Source: a virus
Taxonomy: Duplodnaviria; Caudoviricetes
IMG/VR virus record: IMGVR_UViG_3300049988_000286
Span: 96,001 to 160,000 of that record
DNA length: 64,000 nucleotides
Strand: one strand, 5' to 3'
Position 1 is the first letter of the stretch. Every line of letters starts with the position of its first letter. The notes under the pieces are model-generated. The model ran no database searches. It saw only the letters and a program-made list of their open reading frames with translations, and had not been told where the DNA came from. A program made the position numbers and the translations under genes. Positions 6,238-62,544 of the stretch are shown piece after piece.

Positions 6238-6314
6238 GCTCGTGTGGCTGAAATGGGAATGGCTACGGACACTAAATCCGTAAGATGTGGGTTCGATCCC
6301 CACGGCGAGCGCCA
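6238..6314 (+). tRNA. tRNA with CUA (amber) anticodon, atypical A33 and G7:G66 mismatch
   Basis: Cloverleaf: acceptor GCTCGTG/GGCGAGC, anticodon stem ACGGA/TCCGT with loop CACTAAA, T arm GTGGG-TTCGATC-CCCAC, encoded CCA. Confidence 0.8.
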
Positions 6315-7330: not shown

Positions 7331-7840
7331 TCAGGCGGCGAGCGCTTCCTCGATCCGAGGGAAGAGCGCCATGTATTCGGTGCAGAACCGCGACCACTCC
7401 GGGGTCATGTCCGACATGGCGAGATGGAGGTTGCGATCGTGGATGAGCCAGCGAATCACCAACACGGGAACAAGCCGTTCGTCCAGCCGCTCTAAAATCT
7501 CGCGGGTGGGTGCCTGAAGGCCTCGGCACAGACGCTCCGATAGCTGGGGCTGTAACTGCCGCGCGTCCTCGGCGGAGATGCTGGTGGGGTATTCCTCAAG
7601 GAGGAATTGCAGCAGGTTGTTGAAGGTAGTCGTCACTGCGGCACGCAGATTGATCGAGGTGCCCAGCGCACCGGCATCGATGCGCGAAAGCGTATCGACC
7701 TTCGACAGAAGGATTTCGGTCCGGTCCATGGCAGCGGCCCCCGTAGCGTTTCGTTTCACTAGCATAAGCCGCCATAACCGACAAGCACCGAAACGGTTGC
7801 ATCGTGTGTGGACATAAATAGCAGGATTTAATTTTGACAC
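7331..7840 (-). CDS. hypothetical protein (true start probably downstream, near 7728)
   Basis: ORF track; helical-looking sequence from MDRTEILL. Confidence 0.55.
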   Translation of the reverse strand: MSKLNPAIYVHTRCNRFGACRLWRLMLVKRNATGAAAMDRTEILLSKVDTLSRIDAGALGTSINLRAAVTTTFNNLLQFLLEEYPTSISAEDARQLQPQLSERLCRGLQAPTREILERLDERLVPVLVIRWLIHDRNLHLAMSDMTPEWSRFCTEYMALFPRIEEALAA

Positions 7841-7863
7841 GAATCGATTCGGGATTCTACAAC
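7815..7863 (+). promoter_or_regulatory. TAAATA box (7815-7820) plus sigma70-like TTGACA-N18-TACAAC upstream of ncRNA candidate
   Basis: Motifs read directly: TTGACA 7834-7839, TACAAC 7858-7863. Confidence 0.5.
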
Positions 7864-7874
7864 AGGACTCATAA

Positions 7875-8376
7875 TACTCATGGCGTTATCGGGAGTCGCC
7901 ACCCCAACAACCCCAATGGACTTTGTAGGTGGCAGAGATGTCGCCGTGTTCCGGGCAGGGAAGCGGAGAGTAGCCGACCGGGAAGTGTTGCCGGGTAACA
8001 AGAGACACTAGAAAGAGGAGAGCCATGTCTTACTGACAACTCTCCGTGTTTGTCCAGTCAAGAACCATGCGGCTGGCAAACAAGCTTCTCCACACGAGAT
8101 AACCGTCGAGACCCGAAAGGGTCTGGGAAGGGCAGTAATGCAGGGTCACGGGCGACCACCTGCTAGGCTATAGACGCCGAAGCTGCTAGCGTGGCCATCA
8201 GAGACTCATAGGAATGATGTGCCTTCCCCCCGCTGGGTAGTTTGTCAGATCGATGATCTGTGCGCGTATTTCGCGAGCAAGCTAGTCAGCGGGGGGATAA
8301 AGTTCATCTCGATCTATAGGAATGATATTCATTTCTGTAAGCCATTATTAGCGAATTATCCCCGATAACGAGTGAG
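7875..8376 (+). ncRNA. candidate large structured non-coding RNA
   Basis: ORF-free ~500 nt; closing helix CGTTATCGGG (7884-7893)/CCCGATAACG (8361-8370); many nested stems; GNRA tetraloops; G-U pairs favour the + strand. Confidence 0.7.
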
Positions 8377-8402
8377 CCCGCGAACGAGTGAAGGGGTAAT
8401 TC

Positions 8403-8426
8403 AGGAGAGTGCCGTGGCACTCTCCT
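8403..8426. other. strong hairpin AGGAGAGTGCC-GT-GGCACTCTCCT
   Basis: 11-bp inverted repeat just 3' of the ncRNA candidate. Confidence 0.6.
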
Positions 8427-8514
8427 CCCAGTCAAGGTCTACAACACCTTGCAGGAACTACGGCAGACTAGACGGCGGATCGTTAATCCGACGCCATATT
8501 GATTTTGGAAGACA

Positions 8515-8904
8515 TCAGATCAGGTCTGCTGCCGTGACATGTATAGGGACGGCGGACGCGATAGAGCCTATAATTTCAAGGCTCGCCTTCCAAGACTTAT
8601 CGCTGTCGGCCCACTCGGCGTGGACCTGTGTCTCACGCTTTCCTAACGCCCGAAAGACCACAGGCTCCTCGATACCGGGCATGTCGGGGATCGGCGAAAG
8701 GATGCGGGCGAGAGGGAGAGCAAAGGTGATATAATCGTCACCGTTGTCTTCGATATTCTCGGCATAATAATCGCTGACTTCTTCTATAGCCCAATAACTG
8801 GTCGGGTTAATGCCATCCCGAAGAATTGCTTCGAGGTTCTGTTTCGGGGTGACATGGTAAAGCACTTGTGACGCGCTCTCCACGAGTTTGATCCAATTTC
8901 GCAT
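8515..8904 (-). CDS. putative ADP-ribosyltransferase-fold protein with N-terminal tag
   Basis: LYHVTPKQNLEAILRDGI start typical of DarT/Tpt1-like ART folds; TAAATA 5 nt upstream; MRNWIKLVE. Confidence 0.55.
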   Translation of the reverse strand: MRNWIKLVESASQVLYHVTPKQNLEAILRDGINPTSYWAIEEVSDYYAENIEDNGDDYITFALPLARILSPIPDMPGIEEPVVFRALGKRETQVHAEWADSDKSWKASLEIIGSIASAVPIHVTAADLI

Positions 8905-10350: not shown

Positions 10351-10425
10351 TGGTGGGAATACTCGGATTCGAACCGAGGACACACGGTTTTAGGGACCGC
10401 TGTTCTACCGCTGAACTATACTCCC
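10351..10425 (-). tRNA. tRNA with CUA (amber) anticodon, atypical C33
   Basis: GGGAGTA-TA-GTTC-AGCGGTA-GAAC-A-GCGGT-CCCTAAA-ACCGT-GTGTC-CTCGG-TTCGAAT-CCGAG-TATTCCC-A-CCA; clean cloverleaf. Confidence 0.9.
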
Positions 10426-53930: not shown

Positions 53931-55631
53931 ATGCGCGATCTCCTCAATATCCTGAACGAAACCTCCCTCCTCACCGAGTCCCGCAAGGACTATGAATCGA
54001 TGATCAACCCGGTGCTGGATGCACTGGGGAAGCCCACGGGCGAGGGGAGCAAGATCGCTGTTGATGTCAACGCGACGCTTCGTGACAAGATCATCAAGCG
54101 TTGGGGGGAGATCGTTGCGGAGGCGATGAAGACGCTCAAGAAGGCGGATCGTGTCACATGGTTCCTCCGCGCCATGCGCATCGGTATGGTGGGATCATAT
54201 GCGAAGCATCTTGATCCGGTCCGAACAAGTAAGATGGTGCGCGACTTCGAGGCTCGCTCTGGCACGCCGTTCGATCAGGATCACTTCCCCCTGATGGCAG
54301 CCCTGCCGGAATTGGAGCACTTCCTCTCCCTCCCCATCCCAGAGATCGCCAACTACCAGTTTCGCTTTCAGTCATGGACTGAAATCCACTCCACCTTCGT
54401 GGCGGCGGAGAGCCGGTGGAAGTCCACGGTCGAGAACAGCTTCGTCGATGATGATTGCAAGACGATCATCGATTTCAAGAACGGCTGGTTCTGGGTCAAC
54501 ACCGAGCGGGCATCCTGCGACAAAGAGTCACAGGCGATGGGGCATTGTGGCAACTCACCGCGCTCACGCAGCGATGATCAGCTATTGAGCCTTCGCAAGA
54601 AGATCATGGTGGGAGATCAGGCTCGCTGGGAGCCGCACCTGACGTTCATCCTCGCCCGTGATGGGTTCCTGACCGAGATGAAGGGTCGGAACAACGACAA
54701 GCCAGTCGAGAAATACCATAAGATGATCGTCGCCCTGTTGGCCGATCCGATCATCAAAGGTATTCGTGGTGGAGGTTATTTGCCGCAAAACAACTTCTCG
54801 ATGGATGATCTGGACGCTGGTCTGCGGAACAAGCTGATCGAAGAGAAACCCGAACTCGGCTCAACATGGAACCTGTATGAGAAGTACGGTCTCACTGATG
54901 CGGTCTTTGATCGCGTTTGTGAACGACTGCGGACCCACGGGTTGGAGGAGCCGCACGAATTCGATGCCGACACGGGAACCATCGTAATATTCGATGGGAC
55001 GCTTGCAAAATTTGCTGTGGGCGAACTTGATCTCGACTCCGATGTCGTCAATCTCGCGACCGGTGATCGTGACGAGATCGAATGGCTGGACACCAGCCCA
55101 GCGGAGGGTTTGCGCATCATCGAGGGGTTGGACGAAGACCCCGACACCGAGCACGACATCATCGGTCTCATTGCCAGCCTGATCCACCTCGACAAGGACC
55201 AAGCCATCGACGGTCTCCTCCACACATTCCCGAAGTCGGTCGCATCGATCTGGGACGAGGTGTGGGAACAGGTTCGCACCACGGCGCACGATCAACTCGT
55301 CTCATTCGTTGATAATCAGTCGTTTGACTACCGCGCCCTGATGGTCACGGTCACCGGTGACAACGTTCGCGTCACGGTAGACGCAGAGACTCTGATCAAC
55401 GATATCGCGTCTGTCATCGACAAGGACGAGAACATCGATGACGACAACAACTTCGAAGCGTCGGTACGATCAGGGCTGTGGTTTGAAAAGGACAGCTACG
55501 GCTATGACGCCGACCCGGAGGAGGCTAATGAGCCGAAGCTAGACGAGTACGAGGCAGAAGCGTTCCGCGCATTGTCTCGGCACATCCGAGGCCTGTTCGA
55601 CCACTCCGACCAGTTGGAATTCGGTTTCTGA
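53931..55631 (+). CDS. large tagged protein (566 aa), possible PcfJ-like central domain
   Basis: MRDLLNILNE; ESQAMGHCG...LSLR...PHLT...EMKGRNNDKP; TAAATA 4 nt upstream. Confidence 0.65.
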   Translation: MRDLLNILNETSLLTESRKDYESMINPVLDALGKPTGEGSKIAVDVNATLRDKIIKRWGEIVAEAMKTLKKADRVTWFLRAMRIGMVGSYAKHLDPVRTSKMVRDFEARSGTPFDQDHFPLMAALPELEHFLSLPIPEIANYQFRFQSWTEIHSTFVAAESRWKSTVENSFVDDDCKTIIDFKNGWFWVNTERASCDKESQAMGHCGNSPRSRSDDQLLSLRKKIMVGDQARWEPHLTFILARDGFLTEMKGRNNDKPVEKYHKMIVALLADPIIKGIRGGGYLPQNNFSMDDLDAGLRNKLIEEKPELGSTWNLYEKYGLTDAVFDRVCERLRTHGLEEPHEFDADTGTIVIFDGTLAKFAVGELDLDSDVVNLATGDRDEIEWLDTSPAEGLRIIEGLDEDPDTEHDIIGLIASLIHLDKDQAIDGLLHTFPKSVASIWDEVWEQVRTTAHDQLVSFVDNQSFDYRALMVTVTGDNVRVTVDAETLINDIASVIDKDENIDDDNNFEASVRSGLWFEKDSYGYDADPEEANEPKLDEYEAEAFRALSRHIRGLFDHSDQLEFGF

Positions 55632-56192
55632 TCAGGCACGTGGCAAGGAGGGCTTTGTATCCTCCTCGCCCGCGAAGGGATCGGTGGGGTTCTTCCGGGA
55701 TTGCTCCGCTGCACAAGCGCGCAGTCCCGCGACCGCTTGGCCGCTACCCTTGAGGCTGAAGCTCTTCAACAGCACATCCCCATAGAAGAAGGCCAGCATG
55801 TCGTATCGTGCGACATCGACGAGGAATTCGGCGCTCATCTTGCGGGTGAAATGGATGCGACCATCGACCTCGAAGGTCTTGAAATCCTTTTCGCCCCAGC
55901 CTTCATCGAGCGAACCGCTCACCCCGCGATTGGCAAAATACGTGTTCAGCTTTCGCGACTCGCCGCCCTTGAGCGCCTTGACGCTCGGATCACTGAACGC
56001 GACCGCTACCTCGTTGGTGCGATCGTCGTAAGTGATCATCAGCGAGGAGTTGTTGTCGAACTCTCCGTAGAGCGCGCAGTCGTTCGTATTACGAGCCACG
56101 TTCCAGTGGTCGTAGTGGCGATACGGCTGCAACTCTCCGACCGCCGGGGTGGCAATCAACAGGGCCGTCATGCAGAGAAGGCGAGCGAACAT
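55632..56192 (-). CDS. secreted/periplasmic hypothetical protein
   Basis: Signal-peptide-like N-terminus; Cys pair. Confidence 0.6.
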   Translation of the reverse strand: MFARLLCMTALLIATPAVGELQPYRHYDHWNVARNTNDCALYGEFDNNSSLMITYDDRTNEVAVAFSDPSVKALKGGESRKLNTYFANRGVSGSLDEGWGEKDFKTFEVDGRIHFTRKMSAEFLVDVARYDMLAFFYGDVLLKSFSLKGSGQAVAGLRACAAEQSRKNPTDPFAGEEDTKPSLPRA

Positions 56193-56236
56193 TTGAATTC
56201 CTTTCGTGATCGTGATGCCGAACTATCCCCTGCGGG

Positions 56237-56698
56237 TCAAGCGACAAAATCATCCGCTCGCCGATACACGCCCTGTATCAACTCCTTACAGGTAAGGAGG
56301 TAGTTCATCATCGTGACATCGAAGCCCTCGAAGCACGGCAGTGAGAGATCGTTGGAACGGATGCGGTCGATGCGACTGCGCGGAATATTCTTGCGGTTGA
56401 GCGCCTCTCGCCACGCCGTCACCGAGGCCGGGTAATCGACATCGTGACGCTCGGTGCAGAATAGAAGCTCTCGCTCCACCGCTGCGAGGAGGGCGTGGTA
56501 ATCCGGAAGGGCGACGATCTCGAAACCATGCACCCCATCGCGCTCCTCAACCGGCTGCATGACGGTCACGCCGAAGTGCTCGACCAATGCCGTGTAGCTG
56601 GCCAACAAGGACTGGCTGCTCGGCAAACTGGGCTCCCAATAGAGGGAAACCCATTGCGGCTTGATGATCTGTCTGGCGTTCAGACTATTGAGCAGCAC
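56237..56698 (-). CDS. hypothetical protein
   Basis: 153-aa ORF. Confidence 0.5.
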   Translation of the reverse strand: MLLNSLNARQIIKPQWVSLYWEPSLPSSQSLLASYTALVEHFGVTVMQPVEERDGVHGFEIVALPDYHALLAAVERELLFCTERHDVDYPASVTAWREALNRKNIPRSRIDRIRSNDLSLPCFEGFDVTMMNYLLTCKELIQGVYRRADDFVA

Positions 56699-57200
56699 CG
56701 AACCACTCGGGCTTTAGTTCACGAAGCTGACGCAGCGACGATTCCGCCGATGTGTGGGTGATCCACAGACCACCAGCCTCCTCCCACGCCGCACGATGCT
56801 TCTCGCGATCGTCGATCAGGACATCGCCGGGCTGCATGTGGAGGCGCTTGTCCTTCGCCATGCAGGTGATCATTTTCGTATCCGGGAAGTGATGCTTCGC
56901 CCACGCCAGCTTGTCCGCTGGTGCCCAATCACCAAAGGGACAACCGGTCAGGATGATTGGATCGAGATGGCGCACACCCTCGTAGAGGACCATCGCATCG
57001 GGCATCAGCGGCAGGGCGCGGAAGAACCCCTGCCCCTCCGGGCAGCGATAGTGCCGAAGCTCTCGCCAGAACGCCTTCGACTTGAACTTGGCCTCGTACT
57101 CACCCGAGGGCATTCCGAGGATTTGCTCTGCGAGTGTATCGAAATCGGCGAGGACACCATCGCAATCGATGAAGATTTGAGGAGGGTGGGTAGTAGTCAT
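56685..57200 (-). CDS. HAD-family 5'(3')-deoxyribonucleotidase-like
   Basis: FIDCDGVLADF, ILTG, K..W..HHF, LIDD. Confidence 0.85.
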   Translation of the reverse strand: MTTTHPPQIFIDCDGVLADFDTLAEQILGMPSGEYEAKFKSKAFWRELRHYRCPEGQGFFRALPLMPDAMVLYEGVRHLDPIILTGCPFGDWAPADKLAWAKHHFPDTKMITCMAKDKRLHMQPGDVLIDDREKHRAAWEEAGGLWITHTSAESSLRQLRELKPEWFGAAQ

Positions 57201-60430: not shown

Positions 60431-60768
60431 GATATCGAATTCGCTGCTTCGTTGGAGACGGCAATAGAGAAGGCATCCGAGTAGGCGTGACGGACACGCT
60501 TCTCATCGGCGGGATCGTAGAAGGTCGCGCTCAAATCATCCCAGCCCGCCCTACCGCACAGTCGGCGAAGTCGGAACAACTGTCGCGCAACCTTGATCGA
60601 CCCCGCTTCGAACGGTTTGATCGCCCGCAGGAAATAGGGCGTTTGGAGAGTCAGGGTATGGCGATCCCACCCCAGATTCGGCATGTTGGCGAAGATGAAG
60701 TCGAGGGCTTCGCGGCCGATCTCGACTTCATCCCCGCTACGCTTCAGGCTAAACTTGGCTACCTTCAT
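60427..60768 (-). CDS. hypothetical protein
   Basis: ATG 60768 after GAGGGA, overlapping the LysRS 3' end. Confidence 0.55.
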   Translation of the reverse strand: MKVAKFSLKRSGDEVEIGREALDFIFANMPNLGWDRHTLTLQTPYFLRAIKPFEAGSIKVARQLFRLRRLCGRAGWDDLSATFYDPADEKRVRHAYSDAFSIAVSNEAANSIS

Positions 60769-62476
60769 TGGCGATCCCTCGCAATAGATCAACTGTTTCT
60801 CTGATACCATACATGGCGGTGAAGGCACCGAAGCGCGGCCCCGACTCCTGACCCAAGACAGTCTCGTAGAGGGTCCGGAACCAATCACGCAAGCGTTCCT
60901 TGCCGAAATGTGCCTTCCCGACTTCGTAGACCTCGAACTGGATCATCTCCTCACCGGATCGTACACCCACCGCCCACTCGGGCAAGGGTTCAGCCAACAA
61001 CTGGAGGAACCGCGTGCCATCGGGATTAGCGCGATGCGCATAGGTGACATCCCCGAGAGACATACCATCAAGACGATCGGCGAGATCAAGCATCGCCACA
61101 CCTTCCTCCGGCGTGGGCAAGCGACGCGCCAGCTTCCCGGCGAGGAAATCCTCGTAATAGTTGAACGCGTGATCGATCAACCAACCGAGTTCCTCCTCCA
61201 AGGCATCGCTCATCACCGGAGTAACCCGCGACGCATAGGAGTGGAGACGCGCCTTACTGTCCACCGCCGCCGTCTGGGCGATGTTGAGCAGAAGCTGATA
61301 CGAGACCGGGAGACTTCCTTCGGGAACACCGGCGTGGACGTGGTGGACCGCATTGCCGAGACGCTGCTCCGAGGTCTGTTCCGCGTAGCGGCGACGCGCG
61401 TCGCGATAGTCCTCCTCCGCCTGAACGACGACGGCGGGATAGAGCTTCTTCGCCCGCTGCGGCTCACGGTAGAGGTAGGCGGCAAGGCTATCCTGCGAGC
61501 CGTAGCGGAGCCACTGCTCCATGGTGAGCCCATTGCCCTTCGACTTGCTGATCTTGCCGCCGTGCTCGTCGAGGAACATCTCGTAGATCATCGTCACCGG
61601 CGGGCGTCCCCCGATCGCACGGACGATCTTCGACGATAGCGTGACGCTATCGGTCAAGTCCTTGCCCGCCATCTCGTAATCGACGCCAAGGGCGAGCCAC
61701 CGCATCGCCCAGTCAGCCTTCCACTGACACTTCACGTTGCCGTTGCGAATGTCCCACATAACATCGCCAAGGCGATCGATGCCCCATTCAACGATCCGGA
61801 ACCGCCCGTCGTCCCGCACTGTCTTATACCAAGGCCCGCGACCGTAACTGACATCGATCACGCCAACATAGTTGGGGTTTGAGGTCACGCCCTCATTGAC
61901 GACATGGCCATCCTCCATGATGGGCATGAACGGCGAATAGGTGGCGCGACGCTCCTCCCCCAGCGTGGGAGCGATGATGCCGCGAACCTTGTCGTACTGG
62001 GCGTCGATGGCAAGCAGGGCGTCGTTGAAGCGGCCGGAGTTGTAGGTCTCCGTCGCAGACATGAACTCGTAGTCGAACCCGAAGCGATCGAGAAAGTCGC
62101 ACAGCATCGCGTTGTTGGCGTGAGCGAAACTCTGGTGGCGACCGCTGGGATCAGGGACGCGGGTGAGCGAGTATCCGAGCCACGGCGCGAGTGAGGCTTG
62201 TGCCTCCTCGGACAGATTTGTCGGGACACTCCGTAGAGCGTCCATGTCGTCGCTGAAGACGATCAGGCGCGTGCCGGCGTTGCGCGAGAAACCCATGAGG
62301 TCTTCGTAGGCACGGCGAACCATCGTGGTGCGCGCCACTTCGGCGAAGGTGCCGATGTGAGGCTGCCCCGATGGTCCATACCCGCACTCGAATACTACGT
62401 CGCGACCCGTGATGCCCCGCTGGGCGATCTTGCGGGCCTCAACGTACGGCCATGCCTTGCTCGACTGATAATCCAT
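60749..62476 (-). CDS. lysS: class I lysyl-tRNA synthetase
   Basis: AWPY.EA, CGYGPSGQPHIGT (HIGH-like), KCQWKADWAMRW, GKDL, KISKSKGN (KMSKS), GPRFG. Confidence 0.95.
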   Translation of the reverse strand: MDYQSSKAWPYVEARKIAQRGITGRDVVFECGYGPSGQPHIGTFAEVARTTMVRRAYEDLMGFSRNAGTRLIVFSDDMDALRSVPTNLSEEAQASLAPWLGYSLTRVPDPSGRHQSFAHANNAMLCDFLDRFGFDYEFMSATETYNSGRFNDALLAIDAQYDKVRGIIAPTLGEERRATYSPFMPIMEDGHVVNEGVTSNPNYVGVIDVSYGRGPWYKTVRDDGRFRIVEWGIDRLGDVMWDIRNGNVKCQWKADWAMRWLALGVDYEMAGKDLTDSVTLSSKIVRAIGGRPPVTMIYEMFLDEHGGKISKSKGNGLTMEQWLRYGSQDSLAAYLYREPQRAKKLYPAVVVQAEEDYRDARRRYAEQTSEQRLGNAVHHVHAGVPEGSLPVSYQLLLNIAQTAAVDSKARLHSYASRVTPVMSDALEEELGWLIDHAFNYYEDFLAGKLARRLPTPEEGVAMLDLADRLDGMSLGDVTYAHRANPDGTRFLQLLAEPLPEWAVGVRSGEEMIQFEVYEVGKAHFGKERLRDWFRTLYETVLGQESGPRFGAFTAMYGIRETVDLLRGIANEGSQV

Positions 62477-62544
62477 TAATGACTTCCCCAATCGACCTTG
62501 GCCTTCAAGTTCGGTATGCCACGACGCGGAGGGTATGGCAAGCG

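Follow-up and report, generated by a model that had tools for sequence, protein, structure and literature searches.

What does a gap of some 560 nucleotides (nt), apparently free of open reading frames (ORFs), encode in the genome of a half-megabase phage? The gap lies in the virus record IMGVR_UViG_3300049988_000286 (499,572 bp, here G000), within a stretch of 64,000 nt (positions 96001-160000 of the record) that was analysed as a whole and is called the window below. An earlier note, made from the letters of this window, had proposed that the gap holds an unannotated, highly structured RNA of about 500 nt with its own promoters. Every sequence element listed there is found in its place when positions 7600-8700 are read, and the claim of an unannotated structured RNA on the + strand is borne out by its fold, by covariation, by G-U pairs, and by the direction of a promoter-like motif. 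The locus very probably belongs to a genuine new family of structured RNAs. The full reading, to which we give a probability of roughly 0.55, is that of a stand-alone, pseudoknotted, trans-acting structured RNA of ~560 nt, from a family absent from Rfam, that would act as a particle or scaffold. The gene is placed as follows.

7868..8428, + strand: RNA gene (~560 nt), its ends set where similarity between paralogues begins (at the promoter) and stops (near the 3' hairpin)

The RNA stretch has a minimum free energy of -228 kcal/mol, compared with -186 +/- 7 kcal/mol in dinucleotide shuffles (z -5.8 for the + strand and -4.1 for the - strand). Under the standard code, the longest ORF inside it has at most 64 codons. 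As the earlier note had said, the gap is flanked by two tRNA genes with amber anticodons.

6238-6314, + strand: tRNA(CUA) gene, amber anticodon (ARAGORN label Pyl)
10351-10425, - strand: tRNA(CUA) gene, amber anticodon (ARAGORN label Pyl)

The apparent freedom from ORFs was therefore checked with TAG read through. This opens a frame of 162-168 codons (7880-8368 for 162 codons) in the copy of the RNA in this window (copy A) only, and the frame is preserved in none of the eight homologues compared. Wholesale recoding of TAG in the phage is unlikely, because 52 of its 280 long ORFs end in TAG and TAG joins long open segments no more often than TAA or TGA does. A protein gene with amber read-through was rejected on these grounds. 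Similarity between copies is present in all six frames of a six-frame comparison and ends at the RNA borders, and the region ~7868-8428 is non-coding. The RNA reads on the + strand, since the paired cells of the alignments described below include 81 G-U pairs, which become mismatches on the opposite strand (pairing falls to 86-90%), and since the promoter-like motif points the same way.

While the RNA gene is real, it is not a lone one. A DNA search of G000 returns three further copies, with identities of 75%, 73%, and 69% across ~280-300 nt in their 5' and central regions.

this window: copy A
~G000 257213-256650, - strand: copy B
~G000 471047-470478, - strand: copy C
~G000 338254-338790, + strand: copy D

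When the 8-kb contexts of the four copies are compared by tblastx, similarity spans the RNA alone, on both strands, and the flanking genes are unrelated; the duplicated unit is therefore the promoter and RNA without a partner gene. Copy A has one divergent and one convergent gene beside it. The neighbourhood of amber tRNAs holds for copy A but is not a family trait, as the other copies have no such link. The RNA borders carry no terminal repeats or target duplications. Blocks of 9-13 nt around the pseudoknot listed below (GCCGTGTTCCGGG, TAGCCGACCGGG, and GATAACCGT) are invariant across these ~70%-identical paralogues.

No match was found by blastn among 50,697 GenBank phages, and two pattern scans of IMG/VR gave 34 loci that were all chance matches by nhmmer. 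A metagenome scan with two of the invariant blocks returned four true homologues, two of them on contigs syntenic with loci C and D. At least eight contigs of related ~0.5-Mb phages from metagenomes carry homologues; where single homologues are named below, they carry their locus labels (L039, L042, L048, and so on). Copy C adjoins the large terminase gene (Terminase_6N/6C), and in all contigs with 66-81% terminase identity that reach far enough (some of the terminase-side contigs measure 293, 509, and 547 kb, the latter two being JAWVHG010000023 and JAWVHB010000016), the RNA lies ~0.2-2.5 kb downstream of the terminase. These terminase-side copies run towards converging genes. The RNA is missing from a contig of a more distant huge phage (L053, 59% terminase identity), even when searched with filters off. 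Downstream of its terminase, this contig has a 650-nt gene-free gap (L053 8929-9581) that folds with z -3.9 and has an apparent tRNA-like 3' half (GGTGAGTTCAAATCTCAC). Another contig, L040 (ERZ1645187, 1340 nt), has a bacterial-type upstream region and the 5' RNA domain, and diverges wholly after the hairpin GGAGAG/CUCUCC; truncation, recombination, or a chimeric assembly (2.8x coverage) may account for this.

A tree of the RNA core groups the four copies of this genome with one another rather than with the copies at matching loci of other phages, with weak deep nodes. In the same tree, the terminase-side copy of another phage joins the D-locus copy of that lineage (weak support). This pattern hints at concerted evolution among paralogues, which co-assembly or a shared partner would predict.

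Evidence for a conserved fold comes from two covariance models, which were built from RNAalifold consensus structures and to which the matches were realigned. Alignments fitted to a model favour that model; a raw MAFFT alignment, unfitted to structure, agrees, and in it the helices read by eye hold in 11-13 sequences that differ at many positions. The central model (8011-8192) has 46 pairs in 14 sequences, and 97.1% of its cells pair, compared with 75.9% in shuffles and ~40% when the partner strand is slid. Both sides have changed in 29 of these 46 pairs, and none of 500 shuffles equals the observed value on any measure. The 5' model (7911-8047; 32 pairs, 13 sequences) has 95.6% pairing cells (87.4% in shuffles, 34-46% with a slid partner), and both sides have changed in 11 of its 32 pairs. 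The RNA has ~17 helices, more than 10 of which are backed by compensatory changes, with one pseudoknot among them. The principal elements are listed here.

7918..7951, + strand: helix GGAC/GTTC around hairpin GGTGGC/GTCGCC; the helix is GCAC/GUGC in L052, and hairpin position 5 alternates between G-U and C-G
7978..8009, + strand: H-type pseudoknot, CCGG 7978-7981/CCGG 7991-7994 crossed by AGTGT 7984-7988/ACACT 8005-8009
8017..8045, + strand: hairpin GGAGAG/CTCTCC with invariant inner TGTC/GACA; both sides changed in 5/6 outer pairs
8047..8082, + strand: long variable hairpin with conserved GUCAAG...GCGGC loop; both sides changed in 11/13 pairs
8109..8124, + strand: hairpin AGACCC-GAAA-GGGTCT; GAAA loop in 7/12 homologues
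8125..8131 and 8222..8228, + strand: long-range helix GGGAAGG/CCTTCCC closing the central domain, with one purine and one pyrimidine strand
8131..8187, + strand: central multi-helix domain with GGCAGT/GCTGCT, GCAG/CTGC, GGTC/GACC, and a small hairpin with loop TATAGAC
8226..8296, + strand: long 3' arm CCCCCCGCTG.../...CAGCGGGGGG with a length-variable tip

Stem 1 of the pseudoknot becomes CUGG/CCAG in L048. Stem 2, which is in neither model, pairs in 49 of 58 cells; sliding one strand lowers this to 12-35 of 58, and single positions show as many as four pair types. Helices 5 and 6 of the central model have 100% pairing cells, with changes to both partners in several pairs. The long-range helix that closes the central domain has a 6-7 bp match in 11 of 11 homologues and co-varies (GAGAGAG/UUCUCUC, GGAAGAG/UUCUUCC, AAGGAG/UUCCUU), each case being individually weak because the strands are purine and pyrimidine tracts. 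The 3' arm is present in 11 of 11 homologues as a helix of 10-18 bp and covaries as well, for example to CCCUACGAGG/CUCGUAGGG in L048; in 10 of the 11 homologues none of 500 shuffles is as good, and for copy D 18 of 500 are. The inner stems of this arm (TAGTTTG/CAAGCTA, CAGATC/GATCTG, and CGCG/CGCG) are present in the sequence, in a region that is length-variable and unalignable. A blind scan of the MAFFT alignment for extra tertiary pairs gave nothing convincing beyond the known helices.

Six of the stems proposed in the earlier note show covariation across 11-14 homologues: GGAGAG/CTCTCC with TGTC/GACA, TGTTTG..CCAG/CTGG..CAAACA, the AGACCC-GAAA-GGGTCT hairpin, the long-range GGAAGG/CCTTCC, GCAGG/CCTGC, and the arm CCCCCCGCTG/CAGCGGGGGG. 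Two others are replaced. The stem GCCACC/GGTGGC gives way to the local hairpin GGTGGC/GTCGCC, and the hairpin GCA-GTAA-TGC to the long-range GGCAGT/GCTGCT. The homologues that the note had wanted collected thus exist and covary strongly.

A purine-rich motif stands on either side of the 3' arm, a repeat that had been noticed before, along with a second repeated word, AACGAGTGA (8367-8375 and 8383-8391); the positions of both repeats are confirmed.

8208..8218, + strand: purine-rich motif copy 1, ATAGGAATGAT
8316..8326, + strand: purine-rich motif copy 2, ATAGGAATGAT

The 500-kb genome has no further copies of ATAGGAATGAT (0.12 expected per strand) and is enriched for neither the motif nor its complement. 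In every homologue, two purine-rich copies of 7-13 nt flank the 3' arm and are alike within an RNA and different between RNAs: ACAGGAUGUGAUA in L042, AGGAUGAUG in copy B, AAGGAAAG in copy D, and GUGUGAG in L052. The mean length of the longest word that two copies share is 8.5 nt within an RNA, compared with 4.8 nt between RNAs. By these comparisons, the paired motifs evolve in concert in each homologue. Each motif copy may form the 3' side of a small hairpin, which leaves the identity of the two copies with each other unexplained.

The long-range closing helix of the earlier note has a more restricted distribution than the inner helices.

7877..7893, + strand: 5' strand of terminal helix, CTCA 7877-7880 and CGTTATCGGG 7884-7893
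8361..8376, + strand: 3' strand of terminal helix, CCCGATAACG 8361-8370 and TGAG 8373-8376

In copy A, CGTTATCGGG is perfectly complementary to CCCGATAACG, CTCA/TGAG extends the pairing, and 298 of 300 shuffles of the 3' tail fall short of this 10-bp helix. A test for contiguous helices is significant for copy A only; the other homologues have no equivalent 10-bp helix, and their 5' nucleotides form a small hairpin instead. Duplexfold on the other copies gives long, bulged duplexes that are uninformative. In B, D, L042, and L052, the first nucleotides of the RNA share a shorter pairing, with an AGUGA-type motif on the 3' side. The terminal pairings, none individually significant, are AUUACUCA/UGAGUGAU in B, UUAUCCG/UGGAUGA in D, AUCGCUA/UAGCGAU in L052, and CUCA/UGAG in A, and their changes across homologues are compensatory. 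The 10 bp are therefore real in copy A, whereas only the CTCA/TGAG end belongs to the pairing found across the family. A near-identical strain from a phyllosphere metagenome of another study has A8368G and C8369T, which make G-U wobbles with 7886 and 7885, and also a 2-nt deletion that would bulge the closing helix.

Upstream of the RNA lie the two boxes that had been taken as its promoters, and one of them, TTGACA, forms part of a longer promoter-like motif private to the family.

7814..7820, + strand: ATAAATA box, upstream of the -35-like hexamer and with a putative role; it also precedes homologues L048, L040, L118, and L119
7834..7839, + strand: TTGACA (-35-like), by sequence reading
7834..7863, + strand: promoter-like motif, TTGACA, an 18-nt spacer with CGAnTCG, then GATTC-TACAAC

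This motif is kept before all four paralogues and the phage homologues. The paralogue alignment opens with a common upstream motif, TTGACnCGAnTCG...GGATTCTAyAA, and the exact word TTGACnCGAnTCG occurs in the 500-kb genome at the four RNA copies only. TTGACA and ATAAATA are present upstream as the earlier note had said, but the -10 element is non-canonical. The element TCTACAAC presumably resembles the -10 consensus of Caulobacter-type housekeeping promoters, which we take to be GCTANAWC, and is kept as a lead only.

At the 3' end, two small hairpins follow the terminal helix.

8377..8396, + strand: small hairpin CCC/GGG with GAACGAGUGA motif in the loop, by sequence reading and without statistics
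8404..8425, + strand: terminal hairpin GGAGAGTGCC/GGCACTCTCC with no U tract behind it, by sequence reading and folding

A loop of the GAACG..AGUGAG type recurs in a small 3' hairpin in C, L039, L042, D, and L118. B, C, D, and L042 have hairpins with other stem sequences at the place of the terminal hairpin.

The family also occurs in bacteria. In a scan of one genome per prokaryotic species, two of 60 loci are real, one on a 2.15-Mb contig of a Sphingomonadaceae metagenome-assembled genome (MAG) and one on an 89.6-kb contig of another alphaproteobacterial MAG, with one RNA copy in each genome. In both, the RNA lies ~3 kb from tRNA-Thr(GGT), just inside a region in which the G+C content falls from 0.67 to ~0.55. 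These islands (L118 7238-19204 and L119 342-12161) contain a 180-amino-acid (aa) serine recombinase and varying defence genes, which include Fic, type I restriction-modification (R-M) with RhuM, an MmeI-type enzyme, a Schlafen/AlbA_2 ATPase, and a T5orf172 protein. Common to both islands are the recombinase, the RNA, and a 149-aa ORF only. The RNA and this following ORF are conserved jointly, at 86% between the two MAGs; a functional link between them was rejected, as more distant relatives of the ORF occur without the RNA. No PADLOC or Pfam model matches the neighbouring small proteins of the MAGs, and the phage genome has no homologue of the island proteins.

The host of the phage is probably an alphaproteobacterium. 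This follows from its permuted, alphaproteobacterial-type tmRNA (G000 C1 15556-15913, or L055 1035-1374; tag VNDNDIRMAIAA; Rfam alpha_tmRNA, 69.7 bits), from its tRNA genes, of which there are 41, and from the occurrence of its DNA in leaf and phyllosphere metagenomes.

Is the RNA a distant member of a family already described? Searching 7600-8700 with cmscan against Rfam 15 at E<=10 gives only a chance C/D-box match of 15 bits. The loci of copies B, C, and D have no Rfam match at E<=0.1, and the whole window has two tRNAs only at gathering thresholds. The check named in the earlier note therefore returns no match to ROOL, GOLLD, OLE, HEARO, or introns, nor to raiA, RNase P, or tmRNA, and a literature search found no description of this RNA. 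Several large pseudoknotted RNAs deserve comparison nonetheless. RNase P RNA, tmRNA, group I and II introns, and HEARO/omega RNAs are likewise large and pseudoknotted, some are closed by a helix of 5' and 3' ends, and some occur in huge phages. RNase P RNA and tmRNA were rejected by the lack of Rfam or ARAGORN matches, the phage's own permuted tmRNA lying elsewhere. A group I or II intron was rejected as well, because the RNA lies between genes and has a promoter-like motif of its own in every copy, matches no Rfam intron, and is not accompanied by RVT_1. The phage genome has no reverse transcriptase (RVT_1) or TnpB-type zinc-ribbon domain (IscB/IsrB and IS110 were not searched directly), and on this evidence, together with flanking genes that show no relationship from copy to copy, an omega RNA (TnpB/IscB) or retron RNA was set aside.

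The comparison with the class of large ornate RNAs, to which ROOL and GOLLD belong and to which the present RNA is non-homologous, is supported. The suggestion of a possible new class comparable to these two holds up, with Rfam searches empty and homologues that covary. ROOL averages 581 nt (Weinberg et al. 2017, PMC5737381), close to the ~560 nt found here. Multi-stem junctions and pseudoknots abound in the two RNAs, each is encoded by a gene of its own in phages or prophage-like islands, frequently close to tRNA genes, and each combines a conserved fold with an internal region of variable length; a protein partner is known for neither. The ROOL/GOLLD-type setting is also found here, with stand-alone copies in the phage, copy A between tRNA genes, and the MAG copies near tRNA-Thr. 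However, the present RNA does not match the ROOL covariance model at permissive cmscan thresholds. ROOL occurs in rumen organisms, Firmicutes, and others, whereas this RNA occurs in alphaproteobacterial phages and islands, where it has four paralogues per genome, a private promoter motif, and a motif pair that evolves in concert. Further, oligomerisation, which has been shown for ROOL as an octamer cage, is a conjecture for the present RNA. GOLLD, another large ornate RNA, occurs in phages and prophages, in many cases close to tRNA islands, and has no known function (PMC12286853), but it is often >800 nt, forms a 14-mer cage, and has another architecture, and its Rfam model is not matched here. 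ROOL and GOLLD have recently been shown to be RNA-only cages, with cryo-electron microscopy for ROOL (PMC12286853), and the only bacterial RNAs longer and more structurally complicated than ROOL are ribosomal RNAs, GOLLD, and group II introns (PMC5737381).

A likeness to the pRNA of phi29 may also be drawn, as both are structured phage-encoded RNAs, pRNA being oligomeric, and one copy of the present family lies ~0.2-2.5 kb from the large terminase gene. The pRNA of phi29 is ~170 nt long, single-copy, and belongs to small podoviruses with a protein-primed genome. The other three copies of the present RNA are far from packaging genes, and there is no Rfam match. The terminase-side position may simply be conserved gene order.

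In the reading that we prefer, host RNA polymerase would transcribe the RNA from the TTGACA-N18-TACAAC motif, and the product would accumulate as a stable folded RNA. Its function would rest on three-dimensional shape, with the RNA serving as a self-assembling particle or a protein scaffold and not as a guide, riboswitch, or leader. The likeness among paralogues and between the two internal motifs would then reflect co-assembly or a shared binding partner. A stand-alone, trans-acting RNA is suggested because the flanking genes are unrelated, copy A sits between divergent and convergent genes, and the terminase-side copies face converging genes. The particle or scaffold is favoured because ROOL and GOLLD are the closest analogues; taken alone, this part of the mechanism is tentative and we would place it somewhat below even odds. 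More doubtful still is a bolder version, in which the RNA forms a new ornate class on a par with ROOL, GOLLD, and OLE, specific to alphaproteobacterial megaphages and islands, and its four paralogues co-assemble or each arm a common machine with a different variable part. If co-assembly were true, the concerted evolution of the paralogues and of the motif pair would be a footprint of intermolecular contacts.

Several results weigh against this reading. No palindromic or mutually complementary conserved loops of the kissing type were found. A consensus promoter scan does not call the upstream motif, whose -10 element lacks the final T, and a terminator scan does not call the 3' hairpin as an intrinsic terminator. 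A metatranscriptome from a sample that contains the DNA has zero matching contigs on the RNA region. The sole match in an RNA library is a 151-nt contig of a relative from a rhizosphere metatranscriptome, with a 48-nt match and flanks that resemble the L052-type homologue, which could be from carried-over DNA; a further search of sequencing runs returned small shares only. The contigs of the two metatranscriptomes thus demonstrate no discrete transcript, and the ends of the RNA are taken from similarity rather than mapped. Neighbouring genes differ between copies and no conserved protein partner was found; scans of the neighbouring proteins with Pfam, PHROG, and PADLOC gave nothing relevant. 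The deep nodes of the tree are poorly supported.

These results leave room for other explanations, of which two would give the RNA a different task. It might be the RNA part of a phage enzyme, or a ribozyme, that acts on the translation machinery (processing, repair, or modification of tRNA or rRNA), the invariant single-stranded blocks being its active site. The genome is rich in translation genes (41 tRNAs, the permuted tmRNA, and a class I lysyl-tRNA synthetase), copy A lies between two tRNA(CUA) genes and the bacterial copies 3 kb from tRNA-Thr, and invariant blocks of 9-13 nt around a pseudoknot are a pattern typical of catalytic cores. Yet proximity to tRNA genes is seen in one of the four phage copies, the RNA bears no likeness to RNase P, group I/II introns, or any Rfam ribozyme, no conserved partner protein is nearby, and four paralogues would be unusual for a catalytic RNA, all of which makes this explanation improbable. 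Similarly improbable is a decoy or sponge in phage-host conflict. Here the island copy would be a regulator, an antitoxin, or the target of a sensor, and the phage copies four strongly expressed mimics that neutralise it; or else the purine motifs would sequester a pyrimidine-rich target, for example the 3' tail of 16S rRNA. Both MAG copies do lie in low-G+C tRNA-Thr islands with a resolvase and with defence genes that vary (Fic, type I R-M, MmeI-type, Schlafen-type), the RNA and the next ORF are conserved together (86% between MAGs), and to the eye the paired motifs are Shine-Dalgarno-like in every homologue (AGGA, GGUGA, GUGAU). However, this likeness may be mere purine richness and leaves the mutual identity of the motifs unexplained, and a sponge has no need of ~17 conserved helices and a pseudoknot. 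Neither PADLOC nor Pfam models match the neighbouring small proteins, the 149-aa ORF has relatives elsewhere without the RNA, and the phage has no homologue of the island proteins.

The remaining two explanations deny the RNA a trans-acting role or its existence. A cis-acting leader or riboswitch that controls the next gene would be consistent with copy D and the two MAGs, where an ORF on the same strand follows within 70-130 nt. It is very improbable, as the gene after copy A lies on the other strand, the terminase-side copies run towards converging genes, the downstream genes of the different copies share no relationship, and the gene downstream of copy D has a promoter-like site of its own (by eye); a riboswitch or cis leader was rejected, with downstream genes that differ among copies and several that converge on the RNA. 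That the locus is no RNA gene at all, but an amber-suppressed protein gene, a repeated DNA element (a recombination or replication site), or a mobile element, is barely credible. The 162-codon frame between two amber-suppressor tRNAs and the fourfold repetition of the element would fit it; but the frame is found in copy A only, in a genome with no sign of TAG recoding, and compensatory changes by way of G-U pairs mark an RNA rather than DNA or protein. A mobile element is further opposed by borders without terminal repeats or target duplications and by a genome without reverse transcriptase or TnpB.

Bacterial and phage RNAs of such size and complexity are rare, and each new class has brought unexpected biochemistry or, lately, RNA-only cages. 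The present family offers useful starting material, with four natural variants in one genome, covariation at the level of single helices, and a pseudoknotted core with invariant blocks. The single-copy version in Sphingomonadaceae chromosomes could allow genetics without growing a megaphage, and the pair of motifs that evolves in concert is a concrete, testable oddity. The family also bears on the use of non-coding space by half-megabase phages.

Other features of the phage genome were noted along the way. The class I lysyl-tRNA synthetase is encoded in full length at 60749-62491 of the window, on the - strand (tRNA-synt_1f, E 1e-100). A gene at 923-2137 on the + strand encodes an odd pairing, in which the N-terminal part is RIIB-like (PHROG 609) and the C terminus carries a fused phosphopantetheine-binding (acyl carrier) domain. 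Elsewhere in the record, the locus at G000 C1 ~54990-57070 (L054) has no Rfam match at E<=0.1 and is unrelated to the present RNA family.

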